This document shows, piece after piece, positions 2,364 through 62,211 of a stretch of 64,000 nucleotides of DNA. How positions within the stretch are numbered: position 1 is the first letter of the stretch; every line of letters starts with the position of its first letter. The stretch comes from Candidatus Omnitrophota bacterium (GTDB lineage Bacteria; Omnitrophota; Gorgyraeia; Gygaellales; Profunditerraquicolaceae), in the NCBI GenBank assembly GCA_041651035.1, contig JBAZKC010000001.1, positions 131,244-195,243 on the forward strand, written 5' to 3'. The position numbers and the translations under genes are program-made. The notes below the pieces were generated by a model, which ran no database searches, was not told the origin of the DNA, and was given only the letters and a program-made list of their open reading frames with translations.

Positions 2364-2978
2364 TTACCTGACCTCCTTTTTATTTAAGGAAAACACGATC
2401 GCTACTTCCATACCCACAGATGAACTGCCTATATTTCCCGGGACAGAAGGAAAAGGGCTGGCTCTTTTTACGGTAGCAACCGCTTCTTCATCAAGAATAC
2501 CTGAACCTGACGAACGGATTATAGTTATATCCCTGCTTAGGCCGTTGGATAAAACGGTAAAATAAAGACGCGTTATTCCCTCTATCCCCTGTTTCTTCGC
2601 CCAGGCAGGATATCTTCTGGCTTCTTCTATTCTCTGCTTTACCACATCCTGGTAACGAAGCATTGCCGCGTCAAAAGGTTTAGTTACCTTGACCTTTTCC
2701 TCCGAGGTAACCTGTTCTAAGGCATCTCTAACCCGGGATTGCTGTTTAAATTCCCGTTGCTCTAATTCTTCTTTTACCTCTTTAAGTTTTTTCTCCGGGC
2801 CCAGCGTATCAATTTTCGGCAAAAGCGCCGGCTTCTCTGTCTCAAATATAACCGTGATCTCTTTCGGCTTTTTCTCCTGAACAGGCAGGCGCCAAGCAAA
2901 CCCTGTAGCTCCTAGGAAGAGACAGTGGCCGGAAAAAGAAATTAAGAAAGCTGCCCTTAATACACTATCACCTAACAT
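2364..2978 (-). CDS. tonB: TonB-family energy transducer
   Basis: 204 aa. N-terminal membrane anchor, a charged Glu/Lys-rich linker, and a C-terminal TonB domain (YPAWAKKQGIEGITRLYFTVLSNG...SSGSGILDEEAVATVKRASPFPSVP). Confidence 0.8.
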   Translation of the reverse strand: MLGDSVLRAAFLISFSGHCLFLGATGFAWRLPVQEKKPKEITVIFETEKPALLPKIDTLGPEKKLKEVKEELEQREFKQQSRVRDALEQVTSEEKVKVTKPFDAAMLRYQDVVKQRIEEARRYPAWAKKQGIEGITRLYFTVLSNGLSRDITIIRSSGSGILDEEAVATVKRASPFPSVPGNIGSSSVGMEVAIVFSLNKKEVR

Positions 2979-3387
2979 TTTCTTTTGTCTGGGTAGAAAT
3001 AACTACTCCCTCTGCCTGCGCCTGTTTGGCGATATCCATGACTTTTACCGCTAAGCCGAGGCTAACTTTCTCATCGGATCTTAAGATAACATTTTTCTTC
3101 CGGCTGGCAGCCAATCTTTCCTTTAATGCGCCCCTTAACTCATCAATACCCATTTTTCTGTTATCCAGAAAAATTTCATTCTCCGGGCTTATAGAAACAA
3201 TAATATTATCTTCCTGGGAGGCGGTTATTTTTGCCGCGGGCAAAGTTACTTTTATCCCCGTATGCCTGGCAAAGGTATAAAGCAGGCTAAAGGAAATAAA
3301 AAAGAAAATGAACATATTTAATACTATATCGGTCATCACCACGGATTCCAGGCTCAGCATATATCCTCTTCGGGGGGTTATCTTCAT
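2968..3387 (-). CDS. exbD: Biopolymer transport protein ExbD/TolR
   Basis: 139 aa. Single N-terminal TM helix and an ExbD-like periplasmic domain (ITPLVDVxLVLL-type region, here LNMFIFFFIS...IIVSISPENEIFL). Overlaps exbB and tonB. Confidence 0.88.
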   Translation of the reverse strand: MKITPRRGYMLSLESVVMTDIVLNMFIFFFISFSLLYTFARHTGIKVTLPAAKITASQEDNIIVSISPENEIFLDNRKMGIDELRGALKERLAASRKKNVILRSDEKVSLGLAVKVMDIAKQAQAEGVVISTQTKENVR

Positions 3388-4010
3388 TTAGAAGGCTCTT
3401 CCTTTGTCTCGGCAATTACTTCCAGCAGCTGAATACAGTGATTAGTAAAGTCGTTTGCGGTAATTTTTATACGGCTGATAAAATAGTTATAACAAAGATA
3501 GAGCGGAATGGCAACTATTAATCCGGCAGCAGTGGTGATCATGGCTTCGTAGATCCCGCCTGCCAAGGCATTTACTGTAATATCAGCACCCGCTTTTTCC
3601 CAGGACATAAAAGCGCGGATCAGGCCGGTAATGGTGCCTAAGAACCCCAATAACGGCTCAATGCCGATTATGGAAACCAGGACTCCCAAATACTTTTCCA
3701 TTTTTTGGACCTGATTATTTCCTGCCTGTTCCAGGATCTTCTCTAATCTGCCTAGGGGAAGATTACGTCTTTCTATGCCTATCTTAAATACCGCTGCCAA
3801 AGGATTATGGTTATATTTATTGCATAATTCCAGCGCGTTATTTACCTTACCTGCCTTTAAATCCCTAAGAATATCCTGGACAAACTCAAAAGCATTTAAC
3901 TTCAACTGACGGAAACCCCAGAATTTAAATATGACTATTGTAAAGCCTATGACTGAGCCTGCCGCGATCGGCCACATCAACGGGCCGCCCTTTAGAAATA
4001 AATTAAACAT
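3384..4010 (-). CDS. exbB: MotA/TolQ/ExbB proton-channel protein
   Basis: 208 aa. Three TM helices and the conserved GLLGTVxGM-like motif (GFLGTITGLIRAF). Confidence 0.9.
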   Translation of the reverse strand: MFNLFLKGGPLMWPIAAGSVIGFTIVIFKFWGFRQLKLNAFEFVQDILRDLKAGKVNNALELCNKYNHNPLAAVFKIGIERRNLPLGRLEKILEQAGNNQVQKMEKYLGVLVSIIGIEPLLGFLGTITGLIRAFMSWEKAGADITVNALAGGIYEAMITTAAGLIVAIPLYLCYNYFISRIKITANDFTNHCIQLLEVIAETKEEPSK

Positions 4011-4024: not shown

Positions 4025-5926
4025 TTAGAAGCTACCCTTTATGCCAGCATAAACTGAACGTCCCAATGTCTCATAACCAGAGACTTCCTGATATTGTTTA
4101 TCGAATAAATTCTCGATTCTGCCAAAAACCTGGAAATTCTTGGTTATATCGTAAGAGGCGGCCAGACGGACAACGGTATAAGCTTTATCAGTTACGCTAT
4201 TGTAATCTGAATCCCTACGTTTGCCTACATAATTAAGGCCTAAATTTAGATTAGCGTTAGGCAGAAAACCCCAATCGGCAGAGAAACTAGCCTGTCTTTT
4301 TGGACGCCTTGCTAAGGTAAGGCCGGTTTCTTTATCTTCCGTATCGGTATAAGTAAAATTGGCCCCGAGGGTAAGGTTTCCCAGTGGTCTGAACTTTGCT
4401 CCGATTTCAAAACCCTTGGCCGTAGCTTTATCTACGTTCATATATTTATAAATATATGAACCCATATCGGTCCAGGTAATCATATTCTTGAAATCATTAT
4501 GGAAATACGTCAGGTCAAAAGATAACTTGTCCTTAAAGAAATCCTGCTCAAAACCAAAATCATAACTATTGCTTTCCTCCGGCTTAAGATCAAGATTTCC
4601 ATAACCTGAATAAAGCTGATAGAGAGTAGGAGCTTTAAAGCCAGTGCCCCAGTTCGCTTTTAACCGCGTAGCTGTTTGCGAAATAATATAGGCTGTAGAT
4701 ATCTTATACGTAGTCTCGCTTCCGAATATATCATGGTCGTCAATCCTTATTCCAGGGGTAATAAAGAGCTTATCCCATGCTTTTAATTGATCCTGTAAAT
4801 AATACCCCCAGTTATCCACGCTTTTTCTGTCTTGTTTAACTGAAGAACCCCAAGGATCAGGATTGACATAGTAATAAGATGAACCTGCTTCGTTTTCGTA
4901 CTCAAGGCCTGCAGTCAGCATATTCCATTTTACGGGAGAAAAATTATGCTGCCACTCAATTTTTTTATTACTGCCCTTATACCAGTCATTAATACTATCC
5001 TCATAAACCGGATCCCATTCTTTTTTATCTTTTCTGCGTATATCATGGTAAGAAAAAGACAGGGCATGCGTCCACCAGGAATTTATGGATTGGTCAAATG
5101 TAAACTTAGTAGCAAGGTCTTTTGACCAGCTAGTATGATTGGAAACATCCTTATTGGCGGCATAATCAATGGAAGCTACGGAATCTGTATAATTGGCAGT
5201 TAAACTTAACTCGGCGCTATCCAAAACCTTATATCCTACCCTGGAAGAAATAGAGGTATTATGATACGGGTCTTTTTCTGAACCTCCTGTTGCCGCCGAG
5301 ATTCCGCCGGAATCAAGACGTGAAGCGGATAAGGAATAATTAAATTTATCGGTTTTTCCGCTGGAGGACAGACTTTCCCTGAAAGTATTATGCGCGCCAC
5401 CTTCAAAATAACCTTCAACCTTGGGCTTACCCTTGCCCTTCTTGGTAATAATATTGATTACGCCAGCCATAGCATCGGAACCGTAAAGAGTTGACTGCGG
5501 CCCCCGTACCACTTCAATGCGTTCAATATTATCAGTAGTCAAATCCGCAAAATTAAATGACCTGCCGGCTTCAATCGGATCGTTCATCTCAACTCCATCG
5601 ATCATTACCAGGGTCTGCCCTGACCCTGCGCCTCGCAAATAAACAGACGTCTGGCCTCCCTGCGCGCCGCTTTGCATAACGGTAAGCCCGGGAACATCAC
5701 GCAAAACTTCTTGAACGCTGCGTTTGCCGGTTTTTGCGATATCCTCAGCCGTAATAACGGTAGTTGAGCTCCCTATTTCAGCCTGATAAATCTCTGTTTT
5801 TGTAGCGGAGACAATTACATTACCCAGATCGTATTTAACCACACTATCTTCCTGTTCCTGGGCCCAAACCTGGCTAGATACCAACAGAATCGCCAAAACA
5901 ATAAGACTTCTCATCTTCTTTTTCAT
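4025..5926 (-). CDS. TonB-dependent outer-membrane receptor, BtuB-like. Likely a corrinoid transporter given the upstream cobalamin riboswitch. The start codon I chose lies inside the longer ORF on the supplied track.
   Basis: Signal peptide MKKKMRSLIVLAILLVSSQVWAQ preceded by GGAGG. TonB box/plug region DSVVKYDLGNVIVSATK...NIERIEVVRGPQSTLYG. A long beta-barrel with the C-terminal aromatic residue (...GIKGSF). The ORF-track start at 6010 adds 28 non-signal residues. Confidence 0.85.
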   Translation of the reverse strand: MKKKMRSLIVLAILLVSSQVWAQEQEDSVVKYDLGNVIVSATKTEIYQAEIGSSTTVITAEDIAKTGKRSVQEVLRDVPGLTVMQSGAQGGQTSVYLRGAGSGQTLVMIDGVEMNDPIEAGRSFNFADLTTDNIERIEVVRGPQSTLYGSDAMAGVINIITKKGKGKPKVEGYFEGGAHNTFRESLSSSGKTDKFNYSLSASRLDSGGISAATGGSEKDPYHNTSISSRVGYKVLDSAELSLTANYTDSVASIDYAANKDVSNHTSWSKDLATKFTFDQSINSWWTHALSFSYHDIRRKDKKEWDPVYEDSINDWYKGSNKKIEWQHNFSPVKWNMLTAGLEYENEAGSSYYYVNPDPWGSSVKQDRKSVDNWGYYLQDQLKAWDKLFITPGIRIDDHDIFGSETTYKISTAYIISQTATRLKANWGTGFKAPTLYQLYSGYGNLDLKPEESNSYDFGFEQDFFKDKLSFDLTYFHNDFKNMITWTDMGSYIYKYMNVDKATAKGFEIGAKFRPLGNLTLGANFTYTDTEDKETGLTLARRPKRQASFSADWGFLPNANLNLGLNYVGKRRDSDYNSVTDKAYTVVRLAASYDITKNFQVFGRIENLFDKQYQEVSGYETLGRSVYAGIKGSF

Positions 5927-6070
5927 CTCTTCTCCTCCCGCGAGAATATTTACCTGCCGAAGCTTTAGCGAAGGCAGGCTTCCCCGTAATAGGCAATCGT
6001 CCGGGCTCATAAAAGCAGTAATTAGGGATTAGTAGATAGGAATCAGGGTCTAAATTTAAAAGTTTCAACC

Positions 6071-6339: not shown

Positions 6340-6500
6340 TCTTTCGAGGGGACGAATACACAGGCAGGTCTTCTGGCTTCCGGATCGGCCTACTCACCAA
6401 GCCTTCCCATCTAAAGAACTCACGATAGTGGCTAGTTACGGCTTTCGTCCCCGGTTACAGCGGCGGGACCGCGCTTGCTTTTACAAGCTTCCCTTTTATC
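6340..6500 (-). promoter_or_regulatory. Cobalamin (adenosylcobalamin) riboswitch, copy 1. It is 5' of the TonB-dependent receptor, exbB, exbD, tonB, thyX operon.
   Basis: The minus strand contains the CGCCGCUGUAACCGGGGACGAAAGCC core, GCCACU...GGGAAGGC and a B12 box AAGCCAGAAGACCUGCC. A near-identical paralogous copy lies at 58835-58980 upstream of the cob operon. Confidence 0.85.
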
Positions 6501-6733
6501 CTGCGAACAGGACCTGTATATATACAAAAACCCAACCTCCTTAATAGAGACTGGGTCAAATAATCTTTCTTGCTAAGACTATTTTCAGCACCTCTATTCC
6601 CGGAGGCCTTCGTGTTCTGACTTGCCGGCCGTCTTTAAACGCCGGCACACAGTTGCGGGTACAGTTACGGATTCTCACCGAATTCCCTGCAAAATCTGAC
6701 TTAATTAAAACACGCGCCTTCCTATTTGTCAAG

Positions 6734-46811: not shown

Positions 46812-46812
46812 A

Positions 46813-47856: not shown

Positions 47857-48012
47857 ATTTTATTTGGATTCAACAGGCCTATTTTAAAATGCAACTTTTT
47901 AGGATTTATTCCTAATGGCCTAATGTTATATCCTTCCCACTAATTCATCTAAACTAATCCCCAAAACATCTGCCAATTTCTACTGAGACCAACCAGATCT
48001 CAAAATAAATAA

Positions 48013-48057
48013 GGGACGTTTCTATTTTTGGCGGTTAATGAAAAATAGCAACGTCCC
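48013..48057. repeat. 17-bp stem hairpin gggacgtttctattttt-ggcggttaatg-aaaaatagcaacgtccc. The left arm is the right copy of the 17-bp direct repeat.
   Basis: Read directly from the sequence, with one mismatch in the stem. Confidence 0.55.
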
Positions 48058-48081
48058 CTCCTTTTCTGATTGTACTAATTA

Positions 48082-48175
48082 ATTACTCCTTGCGTAAACG
48101 CTTGTAATCTTCTTGCTCCGCGTTCAAAGCGCCAGTTGGATTTCTTTACTATTACTCCTTGCGTAAACGCTTGTA
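48082..48175. repeat. Two perfect 25-nt direct repeats (attactccttgcgtaaacgcttgta) spaced 69 nt apart, next to the tRNA-His 3' end
   Basis: Copies at 48082-48106 and 48151-48175. Confidence 0.6.
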
Positions 48176-48252
48176 GATTTCATCCGCTTCGCTACTGAAA
48201 TCTACTGCGCACGCTTCGGAGTGAAATTTTTTGTAAAGCAAAAAATTTCAAG

Positions 48253-48329
48253 GGTGGCTGACGGGGCTCGAACCCGCGACCTCTAGAGCCACAGTCTAGT
48301 GCTCTAACCAGTTGAGCTACAGCCACCAG
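48253..48329 (-). tRNA. tRNA-His (anticodon GUG)
   Basis: The minus strand reads gGUGGCUGUAGCUCAACUGGUUAGAGCACUAGACUGUGGCUCUAGAGGUCGCGGGUUCGAGCCCCGUCAGCCACC. The extra 5' G pairs with the discriminator C. Has GTG in the anticodon loop and T-loop GGUUCGAGUCC. CCA is not encoded. Confidence 0.9.
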
Positions 48330-48349
48330 ATCCTACTATTTTATTCCAA

Positions 48350-50433: not shown

Positions 50434-50961
50434 TTAATACTCGACCCCTTTTCTTGCCCGTATACCTGAATCGTAAGGGTGCTTTATCTTCTTTATATGG
50501 CTTACCAGGCTTGCTTTCCCGATTATCTTTTTCACCGGTCCTCTTCCTGTTAATACTAATTCCAAATCCTTCGGCTTAGAACTTAAGATACTCAAAACCT
50601 CTTTTTCTACCAGGAATCCCTCGCGCAGCGAAACAAGTATTTCATCCAGTATGAGCAGATCGTATCTGTTTTTTTTATAGGCTTTTTTAATAAACTCCAG
50701 GCCTTTTAGGCATTCCACCCGCACCTGGCTCTTAGTTACATCTTTATAAAAATGCGGATGTTTTTCGGCAAAACCGAATATATCCACCCCCAGCTTCTTT
50801 AAAGACTTATGTTCTCCATATCCCCATTTTTCAGGGTCTTTATGAAAATAGATGTAGCAGACTTTTAAATCATGCGCCCTTGCCCTGCAGGCAAGGCCTA
50901 CTGCGGTGGTAGTTTTGCCTTTGCCGTCTCCGGTATAAATATGGATCAAGCCGTTTTTCAT
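50434..50961 (-). CDS. cobA: Cob(I)alamin/cob(I)yrinic acid a,c-diamide adenosyltransferase (CobA/CobO/BtuR)
   Basis: 175 aa with P-loop YTGDGKGKTTTAVG and LLILDE. Confidence 0.88.
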   Translation of the reverse strand: MKNGLIHIYTGDGKGKTTTAVGLACRARAHDLKVCYIYFHKDPEKWGYGEHKSLKKLGVDIFGFAEKHPHFYKDVTKSQVRVECLKGLEFIKKAYKKNRYDLLILDEILVSLREGFLVEKEVLSILSSKPKDLELVLTGRGPVKKIIGKASLVSHIKKIKHPYDSGIRARKGVEY

Positions 50962-51743
50962 TTTCTTCCCTCCTGCGGGACCAGGAATATATATGGCCTC
51001 CTGGATATCGGATTTTCCTTTACCAGAACAACCGTTTTATAAACATCCTCAATGACCTGATAAGTCAGGACATCTCCGGGAGCCCCGACCTTATGTATCC
51101 TGCCGTTATTAAGCAGGATCAATTTATCGCAATACTCGCCGGCTAAATTCAAATCGTGCAAAACCGTGATCACCGTAAGCCCGAATTCTTTATTTAATTT
51201 TTTTATAAGATCCAGTACCGCCACTTGATGAGTTATGTCCAGATGCGCGGTGGGCTCATCTAAAAGAAGCAGCCGGGGTTCCTGGCAGAGAGCGCGCGCG
51301 ATAAGGACTAATTGTTTTTCCCCGCCGCTTATTTCTTCTACGGGCCGCCCCCTTAACTTCAAGGTACCGGTTAAGGCCATCGCTCTTTCGGCAATCTCTA
51401 AGTCCTGCTTGCTCTCTAAAAATTGTAATCTTTGAAAATGGGGTATTCTTCCCAAAAGGACGAATTCTTCTGTTGTCAGAGAGTTTACAGGGGGATTTTG
51501 AGATACTACAGCCATTTTACGGGCCAGTTCTTTTTGGTTGATCCGCGGTATATCTTTCCCCTCAAAAAGGATTACGCCTTTCTTTAGTTTAAGCACACCG
51601 CTTATCGCCCGAAGCAGGGTTGTCTTACCTGAACCATTGGGACCTACTATTCCTATAAACTCTCCAGCTGCTACTTTGAAATTAATATCCTGAAGAAGGA
51701 ATCTTGAATCATAGCCACAAGTTAGGTCTCTTATCTGTAACAT
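50958..51743 (-). CDS. btuD: ABC transporter ATP-binding protein, FecE/BtuD type. The start codon I chose lies inside the longer ORF on the supplied track.
   Basis: Walker A GPNGSGKTT, signature SGGEKQ, Walker B LLLLDEPT. Start chosen at MLQIRDL. Confidence 0.8.
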   Translation of the reverse strand: MLQIRDLTCGYDSRFLLQDINFKVAAGEFIGIVGPNGSGKTTLLRAISGVLKLKKGVILFEGKDIPRINQKELARKMAVVSQNPPVNSLTTEEFVLLGRIPHFQRLQFLESKQDLEIAERAMALTGTLKLRGRPVEEISGGEKQLVLIARALCQEPRLLLLDEPTAHLDITHQVAVLDLIKKLNKEFGLTVITVLHDLNLAGEYCDKLILLNNGRIHKVGAPGDVLTYQVIEDVYKTVVLVKENPISRRPYIFLVPQEGRK

Positions 51744-51757
51744 TGAATTTTCCACGG

Positions 51758-52762
51758 TTAACTTACTGTTTTCTTGGCGAGGACATAAACAAAAACACTG
51801 CCTCCCAGTATTCCGGTGATCACTCCCACAGGCAATTCTAAAGGCGCGATAATTGTCCTGGCTAAAGTATCGCATAATATCAGGAAACAGGCGCCGGCAA
51901 GAAAAGAACTGCCTAAGAGAATGCGGTTGTCGCTTCCTACAAATGACCTCACGAAATGGGGAACGATCAAACCTACAAAGCCGATGACACCGCAGACAGA
52001 AACACTTAAACCTGTGAGTACCGACGCTAATATAAAAAGCAGCCGCTTGGCCTTTTCTGTGTTTACGCCCAGATGCCGTGCCTCCTCTTCGCCCAGAGAA
52101 AGGGCATTAAGGCTTAAGCTGAAAAAATAGGAAACAATCAGCCCTAGGACAGAAACAATTACGGCTACCTTTATAAGCAGCCAGTTAGGCTCTTCCAGGG
52201 AACCCATGATCCAGAATATAATACCTTGCAGGTCTTCGGTGCGCGAAACAGCCATAAGCAGCATAATTATAGACGAAGAGATAAAACTCAGCATCACGCC
52301 GGTTAAAAGGAGCCCCTGCATTTTTAGTATGCCTTTTCTTATATTCAAGAAATAGATCAACGAGATAACCACTATCGCCCCCAGAAAACCAAAAAGAGGC
52401 AGGGTTAAAACACCCCAGAACCTGTGTAATCTTAAAACAATATTTAAGCACACGCCTAAGGCTGCTCCGCCGGAAATACCCAGCGTGTATGGTTCAACCA
52501 GGGGGTTGCGGAACATCCCCTGAAGAATGACCCCGGCAAGGCTTAACGCCCCACCTATCGCAAATCCTAGAATAATCCGCGGCAGGCGGATATCCAATAG
52601 GATGCTGTATTCAGCAGAACTCTTGCCTTCAAGGATCAAAGAGATTATTTTCTTAATAGGCATGCCTACTGAACCAGCGCATAAAGAGAAAACGCTGATC
52701 ACTAAAAGGGCCGCTCCCAAACCTAACATCCAGACGATCCAGTAAAGTATTTTTTTATTCAT
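51758..52762 (-). CDS. btuC: FecCD-family ABC permease (BtuC-like)
   Basis: 334 aa with about 9 TM helices and FecCD conserved region. Confidence 0.8.
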   Translation of the reverse strand: MNKKILYWIVWMLGLGAALLVISVFSLCAGSVGMPIKKIISLILEGKSSAEYSILLDIRLPRIILGFAIGGALSLAGVILQGMFRNPLVEPYTLGISGGAALGVCLNIVLRLHRFWGVLTLPLFGFLGAIVVISLIYFLNIRKGILKMQGLLLTGVMLSFISSSIIMLLMAVSRTEDLQGIIFWIMGSLEEPNWLLIKVAVIVSVLGLIVSYFFSLSLNALSLGEEEARHLGVNTEKAKRLLFILASVLTGLSVSVCGVIGFVGLIVPHFVRSFVGSDNRILLGSSFLAGACFLILCDTLARTIIAPLELPVGVITGILGGSVFVYVLAKKTVS

Positions 52763-53586
52763 TTTTCAGGGTGTAATATTGTAACTAATTCTTTTAGAGT
52801 CCTCGTAAAGTTTACCGGGGTAGGAATGCAGAGCATATAAGAATCAATAATGTGGATCCGGCCGTTTCTTACCGCGCTTATAGTCTTATATCTCTGCCAG
52901 GCAGCCTTTTCATCCTGGCCGGTTATGCCCATGGTCGCGATAATAATTACGTCCGGATCCTGTCTTACCACTTCCTCGCGGCTATAGAGCTCTATTTTCG
53001 CGTCCTGGGAAATATTTATCCCTCCGGCGAATTGAATAAAATCATTGACGAAAGAACTATTTGTTACGGTGTATAAAGGCTTTGCTCCTATTTGCACGAA
53101 AACCTTGGGCCTCGGCAGGCCCTTAACACTTTTCTTAATAAGCTCCACATCGTCTGCGGCCTGACGGACTATCTCTTCTGCTTGCTTCTCTTTCCCGATG
53201 ATCCTGCCTAATTCCAGAAATTGCCCGCAGATCTGGGAAAAACTGCTGACAGAAGTAAAATCAACTACCCTTATCCCTAAATTCCTTAATTTCTCTTTTG
53301 TCTTCGGGTTCGTTAAAGATGCTGTTAACACCAGATCGGGCTTAAGGCTGACGATTTTTTCTAAATTTGCGTCGGTTACCGTCCCTACTTTTTCCTTATT
53401 CCGCGCTTCCGGAGGCCTCTGGCAGTATACTGTGCAGCCTATTAATCTATCCTGCGCGCCCAGGAGATAAATCTCTTCCGTAAGATAGGGGCTTAAAGAA
53501 ATTATCCTCTGGGGATAGTCTTGTGAATAAAGAGGCCCTTGGCACCAGAATACCAAAACACAGGCAATAAACAACAGTTTCTTCAT
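52759..53586 (-). CDS. btuF: Periplasmic substrate-binding protein, cluster A-2 (BtuF-like corrinoid-binding)
   Basis: 275 aa with signal peptide and RIISLSPYLTE, LKPDLV motifs. Confidence 0.75.
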   Translation of the reverse strand: MKKLLFIACVLVFWCQGPLYSQDYPQRIISLSPYLTEEIYLLGAQDRLIGCTVYCQRPPEARNKEKVGTVTDANLEKIVSLKPDLVLTASLTNPKTKEKLRNLGIRVVDFTSVSSFSQICGQFLELGRIIGKEKQAEEIVRQAADDVELIKKSVKGLPRPKVFVQIGAKPLYTVTNSSFVNDFIQFAGGINISQDAKIELYSREEVVRQDPDVIIIATMGITGQDEKAAWQRYKTISAVRNGRIHIIDSYMLCIPTPVNFTRTLKELVTILHPEK

Positions 53587-54234
53587 TTAATCAGGAATAA
53601 TCTCCAGAAACCAATGGTTATCTTTTAGTATCTTTCCACCGGTCCTAAACTTTACCGGTTCTTTAAAAATAGGGCCGCTATAAACAAAGGTGTGGAATTC
53701 CCCCTTTTCTCCGCAAGGATCGATCTCCGGGCCGATCTCTTCAATAAATCTTTTATCTATTTTACAGCCCAGCCATTCCTCGCCTAAAAACTCGGCCCTG
53801 GTTGAGACCACTATGGTTTTGAAACCTGAATCAATGATCTCCGCGGCCAACTCTCTGGTATCCCTGCCCCATAAAGGCATGATCGCTTCTACGTTTAATT
53901 CCCGGCAAACTCCATCAATCCAGTCTTTATGTTCCTGTAGATATATATCACCGAAGACAATACCCTGGATACCTTTTTTATCCTTCCACTCACTGATCAG
54001 CCTTTTGAATTCATCACGGTAACCTTCTTTGGGCATTGCCTTTTGCACTACGGGAATACCGGTAAGCTTTGCCTGTTTTAGAATAGCATCACTGGAAAGG
54101 CCGTGGGATAATGATTCTCTGCCGTTTGTTTGCGTAAAATTAATCAGCGCTAAAACATCGTGGCCCGAACCAATAGCTTTATAACAGGCAAAACAACTAT
54201 CTTTACCAGCACTCCATAGGCTTATAACTTTCAT
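53587..54234 (-). CDS. MJ0570/Dph6-family PP-loop ATP pyrophosphatase (diphthine-ammonia-ligase-like), embedded in the cob operon
   Basis: 215 aa with PP-loop LWSAGKDS and the family C-terminal motif CGEKGEFHTFV. No intergenic gap to btuF, and a 4-nt overlap with cobQ. Confidence 0.7.
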   Translation of the reverse strand: MKVISLWSAGKDSCFACYKAIGSGHDVLALINFTQTNGRESLSHGLSSDAILKQAKLTGIPVVQKAMPKEGYRDEFKRLISEWKDKKGIQGIVFGDIYLQEHKDWIDGVCRELNVEAIMPLWGRDTRELAAEIIDSGFKTIVVSTRAEFLGEEWLGCKIDKRFIEEIGPEIDPCGEKGEFHTFVYSGPIFKEPVKFRTGGKILKDNHWFLEIIPD

Positions 54235-55781
54235 ACAACGCCTCTTTTAGCTAAAGGTTGGCGGCTTACGATCTTATACAATAAGCCCATATCAATATTA
54301 TCTCTTACCAGCCGGGCGAGCTTATCAAATTCTTTATCTACATCAAATTTAGCCGTCTTGATCCGGCGGGGCCAGCCTTTTTCTAATCTCAACCTGCTTA
54401 AGAAATCGCCTCTAAAACCATCCTCGTCAAACACGCCATGGATATACGTACCCCAGATCCTGCCGCTTTCAACAGACGCCCCGTCAAAATTATTTATTTT
54501 CTTGCCTTGCCGTTTGATAATCTGGAAAACAGGCCGGCATCCTTTTAATATTTGTGTCCTGCCGTGATGGATCTCATAACCACTGACTTCTAATCCGGAA
54601 TTAATATCCCTCGCCCTTACTTGAGACAGTATCTTCTCTTCTTTAAAATTGGTAACTATAGGCAAGAGCCCTAACCCGGCGATCTCTTTTTTTCTGGATT
54701 CTGTTTTATGCTGGTCGCGGATCCTCTGCCCCAAGATCTGATATCCGCCACAGATCCCGATAAGATGGGTTGACGGATGGTTTTTAATAACCGACACTAT
54801 TTTTTCTGCTAAACCGGTTTTCTTTAAGTAATTCAAATCTTCAATGGTATTCTTTGTCCCGGGAATAATTATCAAATCGGGATTGCCCAGTTCGTGTTTG
54901 GCAATACAATAGCGCAGCCGGACATCCGGCTCATTTTCTAACGCGTCAAAGTCGGTAAAATTAGACATGTGCGGCAGGCTGATCACGGCAATATCTATCA
55001 GGCCGGCCACGGGTTTTCTTGCCTCTGGCCTGCGCTCATCAAGAGGTACAGAATCTTCTTCCGGGATCCTTATTCCTTTTGGTCCGGAGGGATGAAAGTA
55101 CGGTATTACGCCTAAAATTCTTATGCCTGTTTTTTTCTCTAAAAAACTCAATGCGCCTTTCAATAATCTCTTATCCCCTCTGAATTTATTAATAATAATA
55201 CCCTTGATCATTTTTCTTTCTTCTTTTGTCAACAACTCAAGTGTGCCCACGATCCAGGCAAGGACCCCGCCTTTATCAATATCTCCGACTAAGATCACCG
55301 GTGCTCCGGCAGCTTTAGCCATGCGCATATTTACTATATCATGCGCTTTAAGGTTTACCTCCGCCGGAGAACCCGCCCCCTCGATAACAACCAGATCATA
55401 TTTATCTGCCAGGCGTTGATAAGACCCCAAGACTATTTTCTTTGCTTTTTTCTTATAACGCACGTATTCAATTGCCGACATATTCTTTAGCGGCCTGCCT
55501 CTTAAAATTATCTGCGCTTTTGTATCATGAGTGGGCTTGATCAATATAGGATTCATATCTACGGTTGGCTCTATGCGGCAGGCCTGGGCCTGGACTGCCT
55601 GCGCCCTACCTATTTCACCGCCGCCTTTGGTGACAAACGAATTCAAGGCCATGTTCTGGGCTTTAAAAGGGCAGACCTTGTAACCATCCTCCAGAAAAAT
55701 CCTGCATAAAGCGCTGACTATTACGCTCTTGCCTACGCCTGAGCCTGTACCGCAGATCTGCAACGCTTTTTTATCTACCAT
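54231..55781 (-). CDS. cobQ: Cobyric acid synthase
   Basis: 516 aa. N-terminal CobQ/CobB ATPase domain (GTGSGVGKS) and C-terminal GATase-1 (GICGGYQILG). Confidence 0.9.
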   Translation of the reverse strand: MVDKKALQICGTGSGVGKSVIVSALCRIFLEDGYKVCPFKAQNMALNSFVTKGGGEIGRAQAVQAQACRIEPTVDMNPILIKPTHDTKAQIILRGRPLKNMSAIEYVRYKKKAKKIVLGSYQRLADKYDLVVIEGAGSPAEVNLKAHDIVNMRMAKAAGAPVILVGDIDKGGVLAWIVGTLELLTKEERKMIKGIIINKFRGDKRLLKGALSFLEKKTGIRILGVIPYFHPSGPKGIRIPEEDSVPLDERRPEARKPVAGLIDIAVISLPHMSNFTDFDALENEPDVRLRYCIAKHELGNPDLIIIPGTKNTIEDLNYLKKTGLAEKIVSVIKNHPSTHLIGICGGYQILGQRIRDQHKTESRKKEIAGLGLLPIVTNFKEEKILSQVRARDINSGLEVSGYEIHHGRTQILKGCRPVFQIIKRQGKKINNFDGASVESGRIWGTYIHGVFDEDGFRGDFLSRLRLEKGWPRRIKTAKFDVDKEFDKLARLVRDNIDMGLLYKIVSRQPLAKRGVV

Positions 55782-56521
55782 ATATTTATTCCCGCGATGA
55801 TCAAACCGAAAAAGAGCACAAATACCTCGGCGAGCTCGCTGACAGCTCCGATCGTATCCCCGGTCATCCCGTCTATCTTTTTATTTATGAAATTTATGGA
55901 TAAATAAACCGGCAGCGCAGCGGCAAGGCATAAAATAAGCCCTTCTACGCGCATGAGTAAGAAAAACGCTGCCAGCGTAAATAGTGTGGCTATAAATATT
56001 TCTCTTTTCCCGGAAAATTCCACAAAATATTTTGCCTTCCCTTCCTGCCTGGCATAGTCAGATGTAAAACAGGCTAAAACTTGAACCCATCTGGAAAATA
56101 TAGGCGCTAAGATCAGGAATTTCCAGAGATCTTCTCTCGGCAGGCTGAATAAAAACGCGAATTTTAATATTAATAGGGTAACGATCCCGATCACACCCAT
56201 GGCGCCGGCGTGGCTATCACGCATAATTTCTAAAGCCCTGTCTTTGGTTTTAGAACCGCATAGGCCGTCGCAGGTGTCGGCAAAACCATCCAGGTGTATC
56301 GCGCCGGTAGAAATAACTGATACTGTTAAAACAATAGCAACAGCTGCCATATGCGGCAGGAAAGAAAAAAGAAACAGGGCCGAGCAGGAAAAAAGTCCCA
56401 GCAACATACCGACAACGGGAAAAAACGCAAGCGATCTCCCAAAATCTTCAGGTTTTATATTCGCTTTTATTTTAACAGGCAGGATAGTTAAGAATTGCAG
56501 GGCAATGAAAAATAATTTCAC
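55775..56521 (-). CDS. cobS: Adenosylcobinamide-GDP ribazoletransferase (cobalamin synthase)
   Basis: 248 aa polytopic membrane protein with FLTILPV N-terminus. Confidence 0.88.
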   Translation of the reverse strand: MKLFFIALQFLTILPVKIKANIKPEDFGRSLAFFPVVGMLLGLFSCSALFLFSFLPHMAAVAIVLTVSVISTGAIHLDGFADTCDGLCGSKTKDRALEIMRDSHAGAMGVIGIVTLLILKFAFLFSLPREDLWKFLILAPIFSRWVQVLACFTSDYARQEGKAKYFVEFSGKREIFIATLFTLAAFFLLMRVEGLILCLAAALPVYLSINFINKKIDGMTGDTIGAVSELAEVFVLFFGLIIAGINIW

Positions 56522-56538
56522 TTTACGGTATTCCTTTC

Positions 56539-57639
56539 TTATTCTTCTTTTGTTGAGACACCCGCGTCTTTAAAAGTAGCCATTTGGGTCAATATTTTTA
56601 CCGCGGCCTCTATTATAGATATCCCCAAGGCAGCGCCGGTGCCCTCTCCTAAACGCATACCTAGATCCAGAAACGGATTAAGGCCGATATGTTCAAAAAT
56701 AACCTTATGGCCTTTTTCTACCGAACAATGCGCCGCTATCATATATTCTTTTACCTTTGGCTCTATTTGATAAGCCAGCAGCGCGGCTGAACCGGAGATA
56801 AATCCGTCAATTACTACCGGGACTCTCCTGGAGGCGGCGGCAATAATTGTACCGGCTAAACCTCCGATCTCAAATCCTCCTACCTTAGAAAGCACATCCA
56901 GCGCGTCTTTAGGGTCAGGCTTATTTATACGAAGCGACTCTTTAATAATTTCTATCTTGTTAAGAAGCGCGCTGTCGTCTAAACCCGTGCCTCTTCCGGT
57001 TACATTTTTAACCGGCATTCCGGTTATAGCCGCGGTAACAGCACTTGCGGCTGTAGTATTACCGATACCCATATCCCCGGTGCCGATAATATCTATGCCG
57101 TTCTTGTATTCAACCTCAAATACTTCTATCCCTGTTTCAATAGACTTGACCGCTTCTTCCCTGCTCATCGCCGGGCCTTTGGACATATTCCTGGTCCCTA
57201 AGGCGATTTTCTTATCTATAAAAACCATAGCCTCTGATTGCTTACTTTTTAATCCGCGGGCAGGCTTTCTTTTAGAGGGAATTTTTGTCGCCACTCCCAT
57301 ATCCACAACCACTACCTTTATACCCGCATGCCTGGCCAGGACATTTATTCCCGCTCCACCCGTCAGAAAGTTATGCACCATTTGAGCGGTGACCTCTTTA
57401 GGAAAAAGGCTAACCTTCTCCGCCGTAACACCGTGATCCGCGGCAAGAGTAAAAATAACCTTATTGTCTAGCCGGGGCATTTCTTTGCCGGTTATACCCG
57501 CGACGATCCTGGCTAATTCCTCTAATCTCCCCAGGCTGCCTTGCGGCTTAGTAAGATTATCCAGCCTGCCTTGAGTTATTTTCATAAGCTCACGGTCAAT
57601 CAATTTTATCCTGGCAGCTGTTTCTTTTATTTTAGTCAT
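56539..57639 (-). CDS. cobT: Nicotinate-nucleotide--dimethylbenzimidazole phosphoribosyltransferase
   Basis: 366 aa with GDMGIGNTTAASAV motif. Confidence 0.9.
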   Translation of the reverse strand: MTKIKETAARIKLIDRELMKITQGRLDNLTKPQGSLGRLEELARIVAGITGKEMPRLDNKVIFTLAADHGVTAEKVSLFPKEVTAQMVHNFLTGGAGINVLARHAGIKVVVVDMGVATKIPSKRKPARGLKSKQSEAMVFIDKKIALGTRNMSKGPAMSREEAVKSIETGIEVFEVEYKNGIDIIGTGDMGIGNTTAASAVTAAITGMPVKNVTGRGTGLDDSALLNKIEIIKESLRINKPDPKDALDVLSKVGGFEIGGLAGTIIAAASRRVPVVIDGFISGSAALLAYQIEPKVKEYMIAAHCSVEKGHKVIFEHIGLNPFLDLGMRLGEGTGAALGISIIEAAVKILTQMATFKDAGVSTKEE

Positions 57640-58154
57640 TTTATCCTCAACGGTATGCCCGATATCATAAGAAAAGCCTTATCAGATATGCCTGCGGCGT
57701 TTTGATTTACCCTGCCTGCTAAATCCCTGAACCTCCTGGCTAAAGGATTCTCCGGGACTATGCCCCAGCCGACTTCATTAGTTACCAATATAGTATCAAA
57801 ATCCCGCTTCTTAAATATCTTTAGCGCGGAATTAACTTCTTTCTCTATATATTTATCACTATGGCCTTTTAATAAAAGATTGGATATGAACAGTGTCAGG
57901 CAATCAATGATCACCAGATCAAAGGCGCCGGATAAATCCTTAGCAAGCAAAGACAGGTTTTCCGGCTCTTCAATTGTTTTCCAACGCGCGGGCCTGCTTT
58001 TCTTATGCAGCTTTATCCGCAGGCGCATTTCTTTGTCTAAAGCGGCAGCAGTAGCTATAAAAAGGACCTTTTTAGTTTTCTCTTTAGCTAATTTTACGGC
58101 GTAGGAACTTTTGCCGCTCCTTGAACCGCCTGAAATAAAAGTAATTTCGCCCAT
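57636..58154 (-). CDS. cobU: Adenosylcobinamide kinase/adenosylcobinamide-phosphate guanylyltransferase. The start codon I chose lies inside the longer ORF on the supplied track.
   Basis: P-loop FISGGSRSGKSS. Start taken at MGEITF. Confidence 0.88.
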   Translation of the reverse strand: MGEITFISGGSRSGKSSYAVKLAKEKTKKVLFIATAAALDKEMRLRIKLHKKSRPARWKTIEEPENLSLLAKDLSGAFDLVIIDCLTLFISNLLLKGHSDKYIEKEVNSALKIFKKRDFDTILVTNEVGWGIVPENPLARRFRDLAGRVNQNAAGISDKAFLMISGIPLRIK

Positions 58155-58155
58155 T

Positions 58156-58740
58156 TTATAATTTATATACTTGTGGTTTTGAGAAGCCGTTATGTTCAAT
58201 TATATATACTGCCTTAGGCTCAATCTTAAATCCCCAGAAATCCTCTTTTTTGGCTCCCAGGCAGTTATTTAAAATAGCCCGCATTACTCCAAGGTGGCTG
58301 ACTATGGCCACGGTCTTATTTTCCTCTTTATTGATGATTGCATTTAATTCTTTCTTTACGCGGCTTATAAAATGGTTCATTTTCTCACCCAGGGGGATAT
58401 CTGCGCTAAAAGGATCTTTGAGCCATTTTTTGTAAAGACGCGGGTATTTTACGGAAACCTGCCGGTAATTAAGCCCTTCCCATTTGCCGAAATGCATTTC
58501 TCTCAAATTAGCGTTTTTAGAAATTCCGCATTTTCTATTACCAAAGATTATTCCGGCGGTTTGGCAGCTTCTTTTAAGGTCTGAACAAAATACCTTATCT
58601 ATTTTAAGCCCTTTCAGCTTTGCTCTTATTTTTTCCGCCTGCGCCAGGCCTGTTTTATTCAACTCGGGGTTCCGAAAACCACAATATATTTTTCTTAGGT
58701 TATCGTCGGTTAATCCATGCCTGATAAGTATGATCTTCAT
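58156..58740 (-). CDS. cobC: Histidine-phosphatase family protein, alpha-ribazole phosphatase (CobC-like)
   Basis: 194 aa with IILIRHGLTDDN and first-in-operon position after the B12 riboswitch. Confidence 0.8.
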   Translation of the reverse strand: MKIILIRHGLTDDNLRKIYCGFRNPELNKTGLAQAEKIRAKLKGLKIDKVFCSDLKRSCQTAGIIFGNRKCGISKNANLREMHFGKWEGLNYRQVSVKYPRLYKKWLKDPFSADIPLGEKMNHFISRVKKELNAIINKEENKTVAIVSHLGVMRAILNNCLGAKKEDFWGFKIEPKAVYIIEHNGFSKPQVYKL

Positions 58741-58756
58741 GATCTTGGCTACAATA

Positions 58757-58799
58757 AAAAACCCCGCAAGTAGCGCTCTTTTTAGAGCTACTTCGGGGC
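58757..58799 (-). terminator. Riboswitch expression-platform terminator (attenuator) between the aptamer and cobC
   Basis: The minus strand reads ccccgaagtagctc-taaaaa-gagcgctacttgcgggg followed by a T6 run. Confidence 0.65.
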
Positions 58800-58834
58800 T
58801 GCACCCTGTTTTAAGCTTTAACCCTTCCGCGAGG

Positions 58835-58980
58835 ACCTGATATAGGCAGGTCTTCTGGCTCCCGGATCACTCTACTCATCAGGCCTTCCCGCCCGAAAAT
58901 TTACGGGCAGTGGCTGATTATGACTTTCGTCCCCGGTTACAGCGGCGGGACCGCATCCGCTTTCACGGATTTCCCTTAAC
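58835..58980 (-). promoter_or_regulatory. Cobalamin riboswitch, copy 2, controlling the cob/btu operon
   Basis: Same conserved cores as copy 1, including CGCCGCUGUAACCGGGGACGAAAG, GCCACUG...GGGAAGGC and B12 box GAGCCAGAAGACCUGCC. Confidence 0.85.
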
Positions 58981-59061
58981 CTATATCCAAATTTGTATTT
59001 ATTCTTACACCCTGCGGACTGTTTGTCAACGTTTTTCTTGCGTAAGAATACCGCTTATATA

Positions 59062-61807: not shown

Positions 61808-62211
61808 TTTTCTTCTCTTCTATGCTCCCTTACAACTGTAGTTTTTATCCCGCCGCGGGGATTAAATTCCCCCGTGACCTTAATCCAGCGAGGATCACAG
61901 GCGCCGATGAAATCTTCCAGCATTTTATTTATTAAGTGTTCATGGAATATCCCGGCATCGCGGTAGAAAATCGTATACATCTTAAAAGACTTCAATTCAA
62001 TACAATATTTATCCGGAGAATACTCAATCTTTATCACGGCAAAATCAGGCAGGCCTGTCTTAGGGCAGATACAGGTAAATTCCGGCACATCCAGACAAAC
62101 GGTATACAATTTGTCTGGATACTGATTCTTCCATACTTCGATCTTAGGGGTTTTTAGGCCCCGGATGTTTTTCTGCAACCCTTCATACGCGCAATGCTTT
62201 TTACTTTTCAT
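61804..62211 (-). CDS. queF: NADPH-dependent 7-cyano-7-deazaguanine reductase
   Basis: 135 aa with CPKTGLPDFA and the ELKSFKMY (QueF motif). Confidence 0.9.
   Translation of the reverse strand: MKSKKHCAYEGLQKNIRGLKTPKIEVWKNQYPDKLYTVCLDVPEFTCICPKTGLPDFAVIKIEYSPDKYCIELKSFKMYTIFYRDAGIFHEHLINKMLEDFIGACDPRWIKVTGEFNPRGGIKTTVVREHRREEK

Follow-up and report, generated by a model that had tools for sequence, protein, structure and literature searches.

A DUF71-B12-type PP-loop ATP pyrophosphatase in a riboswitch-controlled corrinoid salvage operon of an Omnitrophota bacterium

What reaction is catalyzed by a PP-loop protein whose gene is lodged between those for cobyric acid synthase and a corrinoid transporter? 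The gene was found in a 64-kb stretch of DNA from a Candidatus Omnitrophota MAG (the window), and the original prediction ascribed to its product a possible, undescribed role in the amidation or remodelling of corrinoid side chains. The tie to B12 salvage is in fact on record since 2012, when de Crécy-Lagard et al. (Biol Direct; PMC3541065) defined the DUF71-B12 subgroup from gene clustering by comparative genomics. In that study 75 of 102 members adjoined B12 transporter genes such as btuCDF and 18 of 102 adjoined cbiB, the EF-2-contact residues were not conserved, the subgroup was strictly anticorrelated with CbiZ across bacterial genomes, and P. furiosus PF0295 and C. perfringens YP_695745 were among the named examples (PMC3541065). 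A 2016 review lists the subgroup as "function unknown, B12 salvage", and we found no biochemical or genetic characterization of any member in the literature.

The operon and its regulatory leader

The operon occupies the minus strand, is tightly packed and has the order cobC-cobU-cobT-cobS-cobQ-PP-loop gene (PF01902)-btuF-btuC-btuD-cobA; Pfam and NCBIfam profile matches for all of its genes (Table 1) bear out the gene list first read from the sequence. The ATG at 58740 is backed as the cobC start by an N-terminal RHG motif, while the true start of btuD is an internal ATG that yields 261 aa rather than the 305-aa ORF, in agreement with an independent gene call. The 215-aa PP-loop gene indeed lies between cobQ and btuF, overlapping the former by 4 nt (ATGA) and meeting the latter with a 0-nt gap, and most of the other junctions are overlaps of 4-7 nt. 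It is co-transcribed with btuFCD, cobA, the nucleotide-loop genes cobUTSC, and cobQ.

Table 1. Features of the operon, its leader and the second riboswitch unit in the window
Feature	Position	Strand	Evidence
sigma-70-like promoter (putative)	59001..59029	-	TTGACA, 17 nt, AAGAAT, TG extension; consensus scan 10/12
cobalamin riboswitch aptamer RF00174	58828..58999	-	Rfam 100.9 bits vs gathering score 31.5
intrinsic terminator, riboswitch expression platform	58754..58798	-	12-13 bp GC-rich stem, then TTTTTTATT
cobC, alpha-ribazole phosphatase, 194 aa	58156..58740	-	PF00300 175 bits; TIGR03162 156.9, slightly below cut-off 162.9
cobU, adenosylcobinamide kinase / guanylyltransferase	57636..58199	-	PF02283 195.9 bits; NF004469 188 vs cut-off 161
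cobT, lower-ligand phosphoribosyltransferase	56539..57639	-	TIGR03160 444 bits vs cut-off 319
cobS, cobamide synthase	55775..56521	-	TIGR00317 149.6 bits vs cut-off 110; PF02654
cobQ/cbiP, cobyric acid synthase, 516 aa	54231..55781	-	NF001989 622 bits vs cut-off 273; GATase_3 and CbiA domains
DUF71-B12-type PP-loop ATP pyrophosphatase, 215 aa	53587..54234	-	PF01902 173 bits; SAGKDS, GEKGEFHT
btuF-like corrinoid-binding periplasmic protein	52759..53586	-	PF01497 120 bits; BtuF NF002894 116.9 bits, under cut-off
btuC-like permease	51758..52762	-	PF01032 309 bits; top NCBIfam matches are BtuC models
btuD-like ABC ATPase, 261 aa	50958..51743	-	PF00005; top NCBIfam match is corrinoid ABC transporter ATPase
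cobA/btuR, corrinoid adenosyltransferase	50434..50961	-	PF02572 177 bits
second cobalamin riboswitch	6346..6532	-	105.8 bits; own transcription unit, same regulon
TonB-dependent receptor, downstream of second riboswitch	4025..6010		
ExbB, downstream of second riboswitch	3384..4010		
TonB, downstream of second riboswitch	2364..2978		

The predicted cobalamin riboswitch with a terminator ahead of the operon was likewise recovered, as an Rfam match and a folded hairpin. The match (E = 4.6e-24) covers the entire model (1-189), so that the riboswitch is full-length; the limit of 58980 first given for the locus cuts about 19 nt off its start. By consensus match alone, the putative promoter in Table 1 is the top-scoring site of the region. 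As read from the sequence, the terminator hairpin (58798-58762) is followed by TTTTTTATT and precedes the first ATG by 14 nt; its RNA fold is valued at -29.1 kcal/mol (z = -2.07), and a simple terminator scanner did not flag it, probably owing to its stem and loop limits. Such a leader would turn the operon on when cobalamin is scarce.

Homologues of CbiA/CobB, CbiB, the CobD aminotransferase, CbiJ and AP_endonuc_2 were not found in the 64-kb window by tblastn or by Pfam searches of its large ORFs, which agrees with the predicted absence of CbiA/CobB and CbiB/CobD. The companion claim, that the operon encodes everything needed to finish incomplete corrinoids, holds for the path from cobinamide to cobamide, which is complete, but not for cobyric acid, the CobQ product, which normally requires CbiB and CobD. 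Genes for CbiB, CobD or CbiZ may sit outside the window, on the rest of its 647-kb contig or in other parts of the genome; the best 120 relatives of a close Omnitrophota CbiB include none on that contig, nor any on the 704-, 492- and 387-kb contigs of close relatives. The possession of cobQ and the PP-loop gene without cbiA, cbiB and cobD is common to the window operon and two relatives (L002, L084), and is easier to explain if the corrinoids handled by both enzymes already bear the aminopropanol arm.

Family, fold and signature of the PP-loop protein

Among the PP-loop (N-type) ATP pyrophosphatases, the 215-aa protein belongs, as a bacterial representative, to the DUF71-B12 subgroup. Its AlphaFold2 model (pLDDT 97.1) has as top PDB matches in Foldseek the archaeal Dph6 structures PH1257 and PF0828 (TM 0.86), and the PP-loop S-x-G-K-D-S, H44 and T182 are conserved. 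Alignment of CGEKGEFHTFV in the window protein with AGEGGEFETFV in PF0828 places a histidine at the catalytic Glu188 of Dph6. This His signature matches the published DUF71-B12 motif; 115 of 120 close homologues carry it, as do at least 105 of 150 sequences that represent 50%-identity clusters. The SAGKDS variant of the PP-loop is common to 21 of the 120. On the Dph6 equivalog TIGR03679 the protein scores 136.7 bits, below the cut-off of 197.3. Hence the proposed membership in the MJ0570/Dph6 family stands with respect to PF01902, fold and ATP-binding loop, whereas identity as a diphthine-ammonia ligase is rejected in view of the bacterial host, the E188-to-His change and the sub-cut-off score, and the NCBI name "diphthine--ammonia ligase" is a misnomer.

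Genomic associations of the homologues

The original prediction had proposed looking for recurrent co-occurrence of this gene with cob genes. We surveyed 80 species-representative loci, with linkage taken to require the same strand and a distance of at most 8 kb, and found cobU, cobT, cobS, cobQ, cobA or cbiB near the PP-loop gene in 35 of them, or 40 if btuF with btuC is counted; by a rough estimate less than one linked locus is expected by chance. In a neighbor-joining tree the window protein clusters among cob-linked relatives, and close relatives carry the same operon. The 4-nt start overlap falls in relatives on cbiB or a radical-SAM gene instead, and is thus not specific to cobQ. When 14 linked loci were scanned, 8 proved to have a same-strand cobalamin riboswitch upstream of the PP-loop gene, with the PP-loop gene as the first gene after it in two (L008, L049). 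Cob/btu genes and riboswitches accompany the PP-loop gene repeatedly, in Omnitrophota, Nitrospirota, Chloroflexota, Bacteroidota, Planctomycetota, Desulfobacterota, Spirochaetota, Bacillota and Actinomycetota. These observations support the PP-loop gene as a conserved, riboswitch-controlled part of corrinoid salvage clusters in many phyla.

Cob genes or riboswitches were found in none of seven loci for some His-signature proteins (e.g. Tenacibaculum, Jeongeupia, Chitinophagaceae); hence, the motif does not prove that the substrate is a corrinoid. Roughly half of the homologues surveyed have no cob linkage, which, with the NCBI name and the Pfam Diphthamide synthase domain, would suit a true diphthine-ammonia ligase, or else a housekeeping enzyme that has nothing to do with B12 and whose place in the operon is incidental. 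The signature, the equivalog score and the recurrence of linkage across the nine phyla all argue against this, as does the fact that we know of no diphthamide in bacteria, and we regard it as extremely improbable.

Within the linked loci the association is mainly with transport and nucleotide-loop genes: btuF, cobU, cobS and cobT are each nearby in 22-26 of 40, cobQ in only 6. This distribution weakens the stand-in for CbiA implied by the original prediction, in which imported cobyrinic acid would be converted to the a,c-diamide that feeds CobA and CobQ. Carboxylate amidation suits the chemistry of the family and the window has cobA and cobQ without cbiA, but the a,c-diamide would be useless in most linked loci, which are pure cobinamide-salvage clusters (btuFCD and cobUTSC), and CbiB and CobD, absent from the window, would still be required. 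Further, L001 and L085, both close relatives, pair the gene with late pathway genes, and a cbiA-less de novo ring pathway was not seen. We therefore consider a strict CbiA/CobB substitute very unlikely.

The prominence of cobT, cobS, cobU and btuF over ring-amidation genes might instead point to a role that is tied to B12 but has a substrate other than a corrin. The enzyme could, for example, modify the lower ligand or nucleotide by adenylating and aminating a purine or benzimidazole precursor in the manner of GMP synthase, or act on a transport-related ligand. Ring carbonyls, too, are activated by PP-loop enzymes such as GuaA, and in one homologue representative the protein is fused with a domain of the nitroreductase family, the fold of BluB. 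However, no specific substrate suggests itself and the other fusion partners (GNAT, VanY, DUF4116) are too heterogeneous to point to lower-ligand chemistry, making this role improbable.

A further alternative is a CbiB-independent amide ligase, which would adenylate the f-propionate of cobyric acid and join it to free (R)-1-amino-2-propanol or another amine, yielding cobinamide for phosphorylation and guanylylation by CobU; the route CobQ-DUF71-CobU-CobS would then dispense with CbiB and CobD. The gene order cobQ-DUF71 is the pathway order, cobQ is kept in the window operon, L002 and L084, which lack cbiB and cobD, and cobU, whose kinase activity is required only for unphosphorylated cobinamide, is among the commonest neighbors (25 of 40). 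Moreover, argininosuccinate synthetase and TilS are PP-loop enzymes that take amines other than ammonia. Against this, cbiB and cobD, which lie within the same cluster in 6 of the 40 linked loci and in L001 and L085, share an operon with the PP-loop gene in L001, L085, L005, L007, L012, L019, L020 and L081, where such a ligase would be redundant; a source of free aminopropanol is not evident, and cobQ is missing from many linked clusters. This ligase thus appears unlikely.

That same clustering with cbiB and cobD favors the proposal of 2012, by which the protein replaces bacterial CbiZ, cleaving the f-side-chain amide of adenosyl-pseudo-B12 or cobinamide to give adenosylcobyric acid, or serves another route of pseudo-B12 salvage, after which the nucleotide loop would be rebuilt with the preferred lower ligand. 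The published CbiZ anticorrelation and cbiB adjacency are in line with it, the former favoring remodelling over side-chain repair, and CbiZ was not among the families seen at least twice in 141 unassigned same-strand neighbors. However, to our knowledge all characterized PP-loop enzymes adenylate and none is a hydrolase; amide hydrolysis requires no ATP, yet the ATP loop is strictly conserved. CbiB and CobD, needed downstream, are absent from the window, and the absence of hits on the four contigs noted above among the best 120 CbiB relatives, a list cut short, weighs weakly in the same direction. In a single case, L001, an apparent AP_endonuc_2 gene heads the same operon; CbiR, a remodelling enzyme, belongs to this Pfam family, and a CbiZ-like activity beside it would be redundant. 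On balance we judge such remodelling fairly unlikely.

Proposed side-chain amidation and its likeness to known systems

We tentatively rank first, as the most likely of the readings though well short of certain, a chemically reasonable scheme in which a carboxylate of a corrinoid is adenylated at the expense of ATP and then converted to an amide. In PP-loop enzymes such as Dph6, NadE, AsnB, QueC, GuaA and ArgG, an oxygen of the substrate is adenylated with ATP before a nucleophile, either nitrogen or sulfur, is added. By analogy, the intact PP-loop would bind ATP, a carboxylate of an imported corrinoid would be adenylated, and ammonia would resolve the acyl-adenylate to an amide. Deamidated corrin side chains could so be re-amidated or finished, rendering salvaged corrinoids usable, and CobQ (b, d, e and g positions) may act alongside the PP-loop enzyme here. 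The histidine in place of Glu188 might mark a substrate switch from EF-2 diphthine to a corrinoid.

Comparison with known systems places this proposal as follows: 1) Dph6 (PF0828 3RJZ/3RK1, PH1257 2D13, MJ0570 and yeast Dph6) shares with the window protein the fold, the PP-loop ATP site and about 30% identity, and ATP-dependent adenylation is the likely common step; it differs in its catalytic glutamate, and as the host lacks diphthamide the substrate must differ too. 2) CbiA/CobB and CobQ/CbiP would, should the amidation reading be right, act on the same class of substrate and likewise turn a carboxylate into an amide, but they are of another, unrelated family (CobQ/CobB/MinD/ParA-type nucleotide-binding domain with GATase_3) and proceed through an ADP-forming phosphoryl intermediate with glutamine as nitrogen donor, whereas the window protein lacks a glutaminase domain and its intermediate would be an acyl-adenylate. 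3) NadE, AsnB and QueC follow the same adenylate-then-amidate logic on a PP-loop, but are distant kin with other C-terminal domains and small-molecule substrates unrelated to corrinoids. 4) CbiZ (adenosylcobinamide/pseudo-B12 amidohydrolase), reported as mutually exclusive with DUF71-B12 in bacteria (PMC3541065), and CbiR are likewise accessory enzymes of corrinoid salvage clusters; they are, however, ATP-independent hydrolases without sequence or fold kinship to this ATP pyrophosphatase. 5) The DUF71-B12 subgroup (PMC3541065) shares the Pfam family, the histidine for Glu188 in E-x-G-E-[F/Y]-H, the btuFCD and cob salvage neighborhood and a bacterial host. Its consensus has N as the second motif residue and SGGKDS as the PP-loop, where the window protein has K and SAGKDS. 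Omnitrophota are not in the phylum table of the 2012 paper, and the window gene is further set apart by its pairing with cobQ in a cluster without cbiB.

Family affinities of the PP-loop protein

The 215-aa protein encoded between cobQ and btuF matches the PF01902 profile (Diphthami_syn_2/DUF71/COG2102) with 173.2 bits against a gathering threshold of 23.2, its residues 1-212 covering profile positions 1-214 of 219. Foldseek searches with its AlphaFold2 model (pLDDT 97.1) returned as best PDB matches 2D13 and 3RK1, the archaeal Dph6 proteins PH1257 (Pyrococcus horikoshii) and PF0828 (P. furiosus), with a TM-score of 0.86, E = 2e-18 and ~30% identity, and neither sequence nor Foldseek searches found a solved structure closer than these two. 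On this model the protein is predicted to adopt the Dph6 fold, namely that of a PP-loop ATP pyrophosphatase with a C-terminal DUF71 domain. The PP-loop SAGKDS and the other ATP-site residues are present, and the ATP loop is strictly conserved. Comparison with related families showed that: 1) CGEKGEFHTFV of the window protein aligns with AGEGGEFETFV of PF0828 (HMMER alignment), placing a histidine, H181, at the position of the Dph6 catalytic glutamate, E188, and GEKGEFH where Dph6 has EGG[E/D]xE188. 2) The score against the TIGR03679 Dph6 equivalog is 136.7 bits, below the cut-off of 197.3 (NCBIfam). 3) The score against NF052346, the PAB0415 family of putative ATP pyrophosphatases, is 107.5 bits against a cut-off of 250. 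4) PF01902 is the sole domain match, in place of the CobQ/CobB/MinD/ParA-type nucleotide-binding domain and GATase_3 of CbiA/CobB, and tblastn recovered no CobQ-like match in the window besides cobQ itself. The replacement of E188 by histidine, together with the score under the Dph6 equivalog cut-off, rules out identity as a diphthine-ammonia ligase (EC 6.3.1.14). Further, bacteria lack diphthamide (PMC3541065), and the host is a Candidatus Omnitrophota bacterium. That the protein is a true Dph6 or else an unrelated passenger in the operon is hardly credible.

The DUF71/COG2102 family was divided by De Crécy-Lagard et al. (Biol Direct 2012, PMC3541065) between Dph6 and a subgroup termed DUF71-B12. 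This subgroup reached bacteria by transfer from archaea, carries ENGE[F/Y]H as its defining motif where Dph6 has its E188 motif, and lies next to B12 transporter genes such as btuCDF in 75 of 102 cases and to cbiB in 18 of 102. The window protein shares with this subgroup: 1) the motif, in the form EKGEFH, with its histidine at the Dph6 E188 position; 2) clustering, its gene being flanked by cobQ and btuF within the riboswitch-controlled operon; and 3) tree position, since in a simple neighbour-joining distance tree without support values it groups with cob-linked homologues from other genomes (L001, L002 and L004), with PF0828 and PH1257 as the outgroup. Membership in DUF71-B12 together with a role in corrinoid salvage is, in our judgement, highly probable. 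NCBI gives the name 'diphthine--ammonia ligase' to an entry of a Candidatus Omnitrophota MAG with 100% identity to the window protein, and likewise to P0001, P0003, P0017 and other bacterial homologues despite scores below the TIGR03679 cut-off and the lack of Glu188. This naming of such bacterial proteins is a systematic misannotation, which the present case is useful for correcting.

The riboswitch-controlled operon and its surroundings

Rfam, Pfam and NCBIfam searches bear out the originally predicted minus-strand corrinoid salvage operon behind a cobalamin riboswitch. The leader has the layout of a transcription-attenuating riboswitch: the expression-platform hairpin folds with -29.1 kcal/mol (z = -2.1, RNA folding), and the hairpin with its TTTTTTATT tract stops 14 nt short of the first start codon. 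This terminator was absent from the output of a simple terminator scanner and was found by direct reading and RNA folding. The ten operon genes are joined by overlaps or by gaps of 0-17 nt, and were reproduced by an independent gene call on the same contig, which starts btuD at an internal ATG at 51743 to give a protein of 261 aa. The cobQ/cbiP product scores 622 bits on the cobyric acid synthase equivalog (NCBIfam); the gene overlaps the PP-loop gene by the predicted 4 nt, ATGA, and the PP-loop gene in turn abuts btuF.

Coordinates of features in the window and in homologue-bearing loci of other genomes
Feature	Sequence	Position	Strand	Basis or remark
Promoter-like site TTGACA-17-AAGAAT	window	59029-59001	-	consensus scan; region's best, upstream of riboswitch
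Cobalamin riboswitch, full-length	window	58828-58999	-	Rfam, 100.9 bits (gathering score 31.5)
GC-rich hairpin, then TTTTTTATT	window	58798-58762	-	direct reading of sequence; riboswitch expression platform
Operon cobC, cobU, cobT, cobS, cobQ/cbiP, PF01902 gene, btuF, btuC, btuD, cobA	window		-	Pfam, NCBIfam
cobQ	window	54231-55781	-	
PP-loop (PF01902) gene	window	53587-54234	-	
Second cobalamin riboswitch	window	6346-6532	-	Rfam, 105.8 bits
Weak partial aptamer-like match	window	6612-6686	-	35.3 bits; just upstream of second riboswitch
TonB-dependent receptor	window	4025-6010	-	behind second riboswitch
ExbB	window	3384-4010	-	behind second riboswitch
TonB	window	2364-2978	-	behind second riboswitch
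queD-queC-queE-queF	window and beyond	62208-63552 (L086 330-2431)	-	preQ1 genes, upstream of operon
Defence or restriction-modification island	window	38100-48330	-	
tRNA gene	window	48253-48326		end of island
DUF1846 and GATase_7 genes	window	26647-29649	-	
AP_endonuc_2-family gene	L001	2579-3394		head of cob operon
Radical-SAM gene	L084	5148-6647		
Radical-SAM gene	L085	8405-10004		
Radical-SAM gene	L004	40-1449		
c-di-GMP-I riboswitch	L004	9507-9594		65.6 bits
DUF71 paralogues, side by side	L024	7702-8352, 10260-10913		
DUF71 paralogues, side by side	L074	10001-10624, 10732-11361		

Searches by tblastn and Pfam, the latter extended to the other large ORFs, found no homologue of CbiA/CobB, CbiB, the CobD aminotransferase, CbiJ or AP_endonuc_2 across the 64 kb, so that the predicted lack of CbiA/CobB and of CbiB/CobD holds for the window; Pfam likewise gave no CbiZ match among the window ORFs scanned. 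The operon is complete for the conversion of cobinamide to a cobamide. The original claim that it encodes everything needed to finish incomplete corrinoids calls for correction, as the CobQ product would normally require CbiB and CobD; cobQ is kept here with no cbiA, cbiB or cobD within 64 kb. The receptor, ExbB and TonB genes behind the second riboswitch probably serve BtuB-type uptake at the outer membrane as part of the same B12 regulon, and with this riboswitch-controlled unit the host is equipped for scavenging corrinoids across both membranes.

Several other features of the window deserve mention. The preQ1 genes upstream of the operon include queC, whose product is another PP-loop enzyme, amidating a carboxylate en route to a nitrile. 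The defence or restriction-modification island encodes a DUF6036 nucleotidyltransferase, an AAA_15 ATPase, a 929-aa UvrD/PDDEXK helicase-nuclease, a DNA methylase, a GmrSD_N+HNH protein and an EcoRI-type adenine methylase, and its end at a tRNA gene suggests that it is integrated. An uncharacterised pair comprises a DUF1846 protein (507 aa) and an adjoining GATase_7 glutamine amidotransferase-like protein (485 aa).

Homologues and their gene neighbourhoods

The family is widespread: an exhaustive HMMER search (E <= 1e-3) recovered 4,248 clusters at 50% identity, and cob linkage holds for about half of the species loci surveyed. Among the best 150 of these clusters, at least 105 have the exact motif E-x-G-E-[F/Y]-H-T and ~25 more an H-S variant, and none of the motifs recovered from their representatives has the Dph6 glutamate. 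The histidine is present in 115 of the 120 closest homologues, and the second residue of ENGE[F/Y]H is variable among members of the subgroup, being N, K, R, A, G or E.

In an independent re-test of the published B12 association, we located homologues of the operon proteins by tblastn at 80 loci from species-representative genomes, using as queries the window operon proteins and the CbiB, CobD and CbiJ of a relative. Co-localisation proved recurrent: at 35 of the 80 loci at least one of the cob-specific genes cobU, cobT, cobS, cobQ, cobA and cbiB lies on the same strand within 8 kb of the PP-loop gene, a number rising to 40 once btuF and btuC are counted, where chance alone would by a rough estimate give far less than one. 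Hosts of the linked loci belong to Omnitrophota, Nitrospirota, Chloroflexota/Dehalococcoidia, Bacteroidota, Planctomycetota, Desulfobacterota, Lentisphaerota, Spirochaetota, Bacillota, Actinomycetota and Bathyarchaeia. Rfam scans detected a same-strand cobalamin riboswitch upstream of the PP-loop gene at 8 of 14 linked loci, most of the remainder being truncated contigs, and at none of 7 unlinked loci; in L008 and L049 no other gene stands between the riboswitch and the PP-loop gene. The commonest neighbours at the 40 linked loci are btuF (26), cobU (25), cobS (23), cobT (22) and btuC (19), with cobQ, cbiB and cobD each present at only six. Thus, the PP-loop gene is associated with the core genes of cobinamide salvage, those for uptake and the nucleotide loop, rather than with ring amidation specifically. 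CbiZ was not among the families seen in two or more of the surveyed neighbours in other genomes.

The close relatives, at 61-69% identity, have the same operon in their gene tables (L001, L002, L084 and L085). Both L002 and L084 include cobS-cobQ-DUF71-btuB and lack cbiB, and L001 (Smithellaceae) and L085 also keep cobD and cbiB; cobQ and the DUF71 gene therefore occur with no nearby cbiA, cbiB or cobD in the window, L002 and L084. With a close Omnitrophota CbiB as query, none of the best 120 matches (down to ~55% identity) fell on the 646,801-bp contig of the window or on the 704-, 492- and 387-kb contigs of the close relatives, and among the CbiB matches listed several shorter contigs carry both genes; these best 120 matches hint that some of these lineages have no nearby cbiB. 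At the start of the DUF71 gene, the partner in the 4-nt overlap is cbiB in L001 and a radical-SAM gene in L085, and given this, as well as the rarity of cobQ as a neighbour, we reject a specific functional couple of CobQ and DUF71.

The cob salvage operons of L084, L085 and the related Omnitrophota contig L004 contain or begin with a radical-SAM gene, which has a SPASM domain in L084 and L004 and is preceded by an ORF of 50-53 aa in L084 and L085; the ORF and the radical-SAM gene resemble a peptide-maturase pair, unexpected at this location. L004 also has a c-di-GMP-I riboswitch downstream of its B12 cluster. The histidine motif also occurs in homologues from Tenacibaculum, Chitinophagaceae, Jeongeupia and Janthinobacterium that have neither nearby cob genes nor a riboswitch, and was hence rejected as a sufficient marker of B12 function. 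Ten long representatives showed fusions to GNAT, VanY, nitroreductase or DUF4116 domains or none, with no pointer to corrinoids. Side-by-side DUF71 paralogues are present in L024 and L074, and P0125 (458 aa) is a tandem fusion of two DUF71 domains with the histidine motif in both.

Candidate reactions of the DUF71-B12 family

The recurrent context (35-40 of 80 loci) sustains the corrinoid-salvage link of the original prediction, whose amidation idea is plausible, but not its novelty: the role described there as undescribed had been predicted in 2012 (PMC3541065), and its proposal amounts to a rediscovery of that prediction. A 2016 review still listed DUF71-B12 as 'function unknown, B12 salvage', our literature search for experiments on the family turned up nothing beyond the 2012 paper and its citations, and we found no assigned reaction 14 years after the family was first flagged.

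Characterised PP-loop enzymes, to our knowledge, all adenylate a substrate oxygen and then add a nitrogen or sulfur nucleophile, none being a hydrolase. We tentatively propose that the window protein would carry out ATP-dependent adenylation and then amidation of a corrinoid side-chain carboxylate, a possibility we place somewhat short of even; that DUF71-B12 as a whole constitutes a new class of ATP-dependent, acyl-adenylate-forming corrinoid amide synthetases has, in our estimate, an even chance. Two versions of such an amide synthetase may be envisaged. In the first it would act in repair, restoring the amides of deamidated side chains on scavenged corrinoids, with CobQ and the PP-loop enzyme both acting on corrinoids already bearing the aminopropanol arm. 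In the second, which we consider unlikely, it would be a CbiB-independent ligase making cobinamide from cobyric acid, which CobU would then phosphorylate. The retention of cobQ and the DUF71 gene with no cbiA, cbiB or cobD nearby is easiest to accommodate under either version. A strict replacement of CbiA acting upstream of CobQ is very improbable, being weakened by the preponderance of uptake and nucleotide-loop neighbours and the scarcity of cobQ among them.

In bacteria DUF71-B12 and CbiZ are strictly anticorrelated, and from this phylogenetic profile, which supports a CbiZ-like remodelling role, the 2012 study cautiously proposed a CbiZ-like activity, a pseudo-B12 amidohydrolase or another route of pseudo-B12 salvage (PMC3541065). 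Such a role would be chemically awkward, and we regard it as rather unlikely. The cob operon of the Smithellaceae locus L001 is headed by an AP_endonuc_2-family gene and includes the DUF71 gene; AP_endonuc_2 is the Pfam family of the cobamide-remodelling enzyme CbiR, and if this gene is a true CbiR it argues against a remodelling hydrolase. Action on some other B12-related substrate, such as the lower ligand, is distinctly unlikely.

If true, the amide-synthetase reading would give B12 salvage an enzymatic step not known before and explain the presence of cobQ without cbiA, cbiB and cobD in reduced salvagers like this Omnitrophota bacterium. Cobamide salvage and remodelling shape cross-feeding in microbial communities. 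The window offers a clean example under riboswitch control, where cobQ and the PP-loop gene are retained with no cbiA, cbiB or cobD across 64 kb, an arrangement that narrows the plausible substrates. With respect to known systems, the window protein is an additional member of DUF71-B12 in a new phylum, rather than the representative of a new kind of system.
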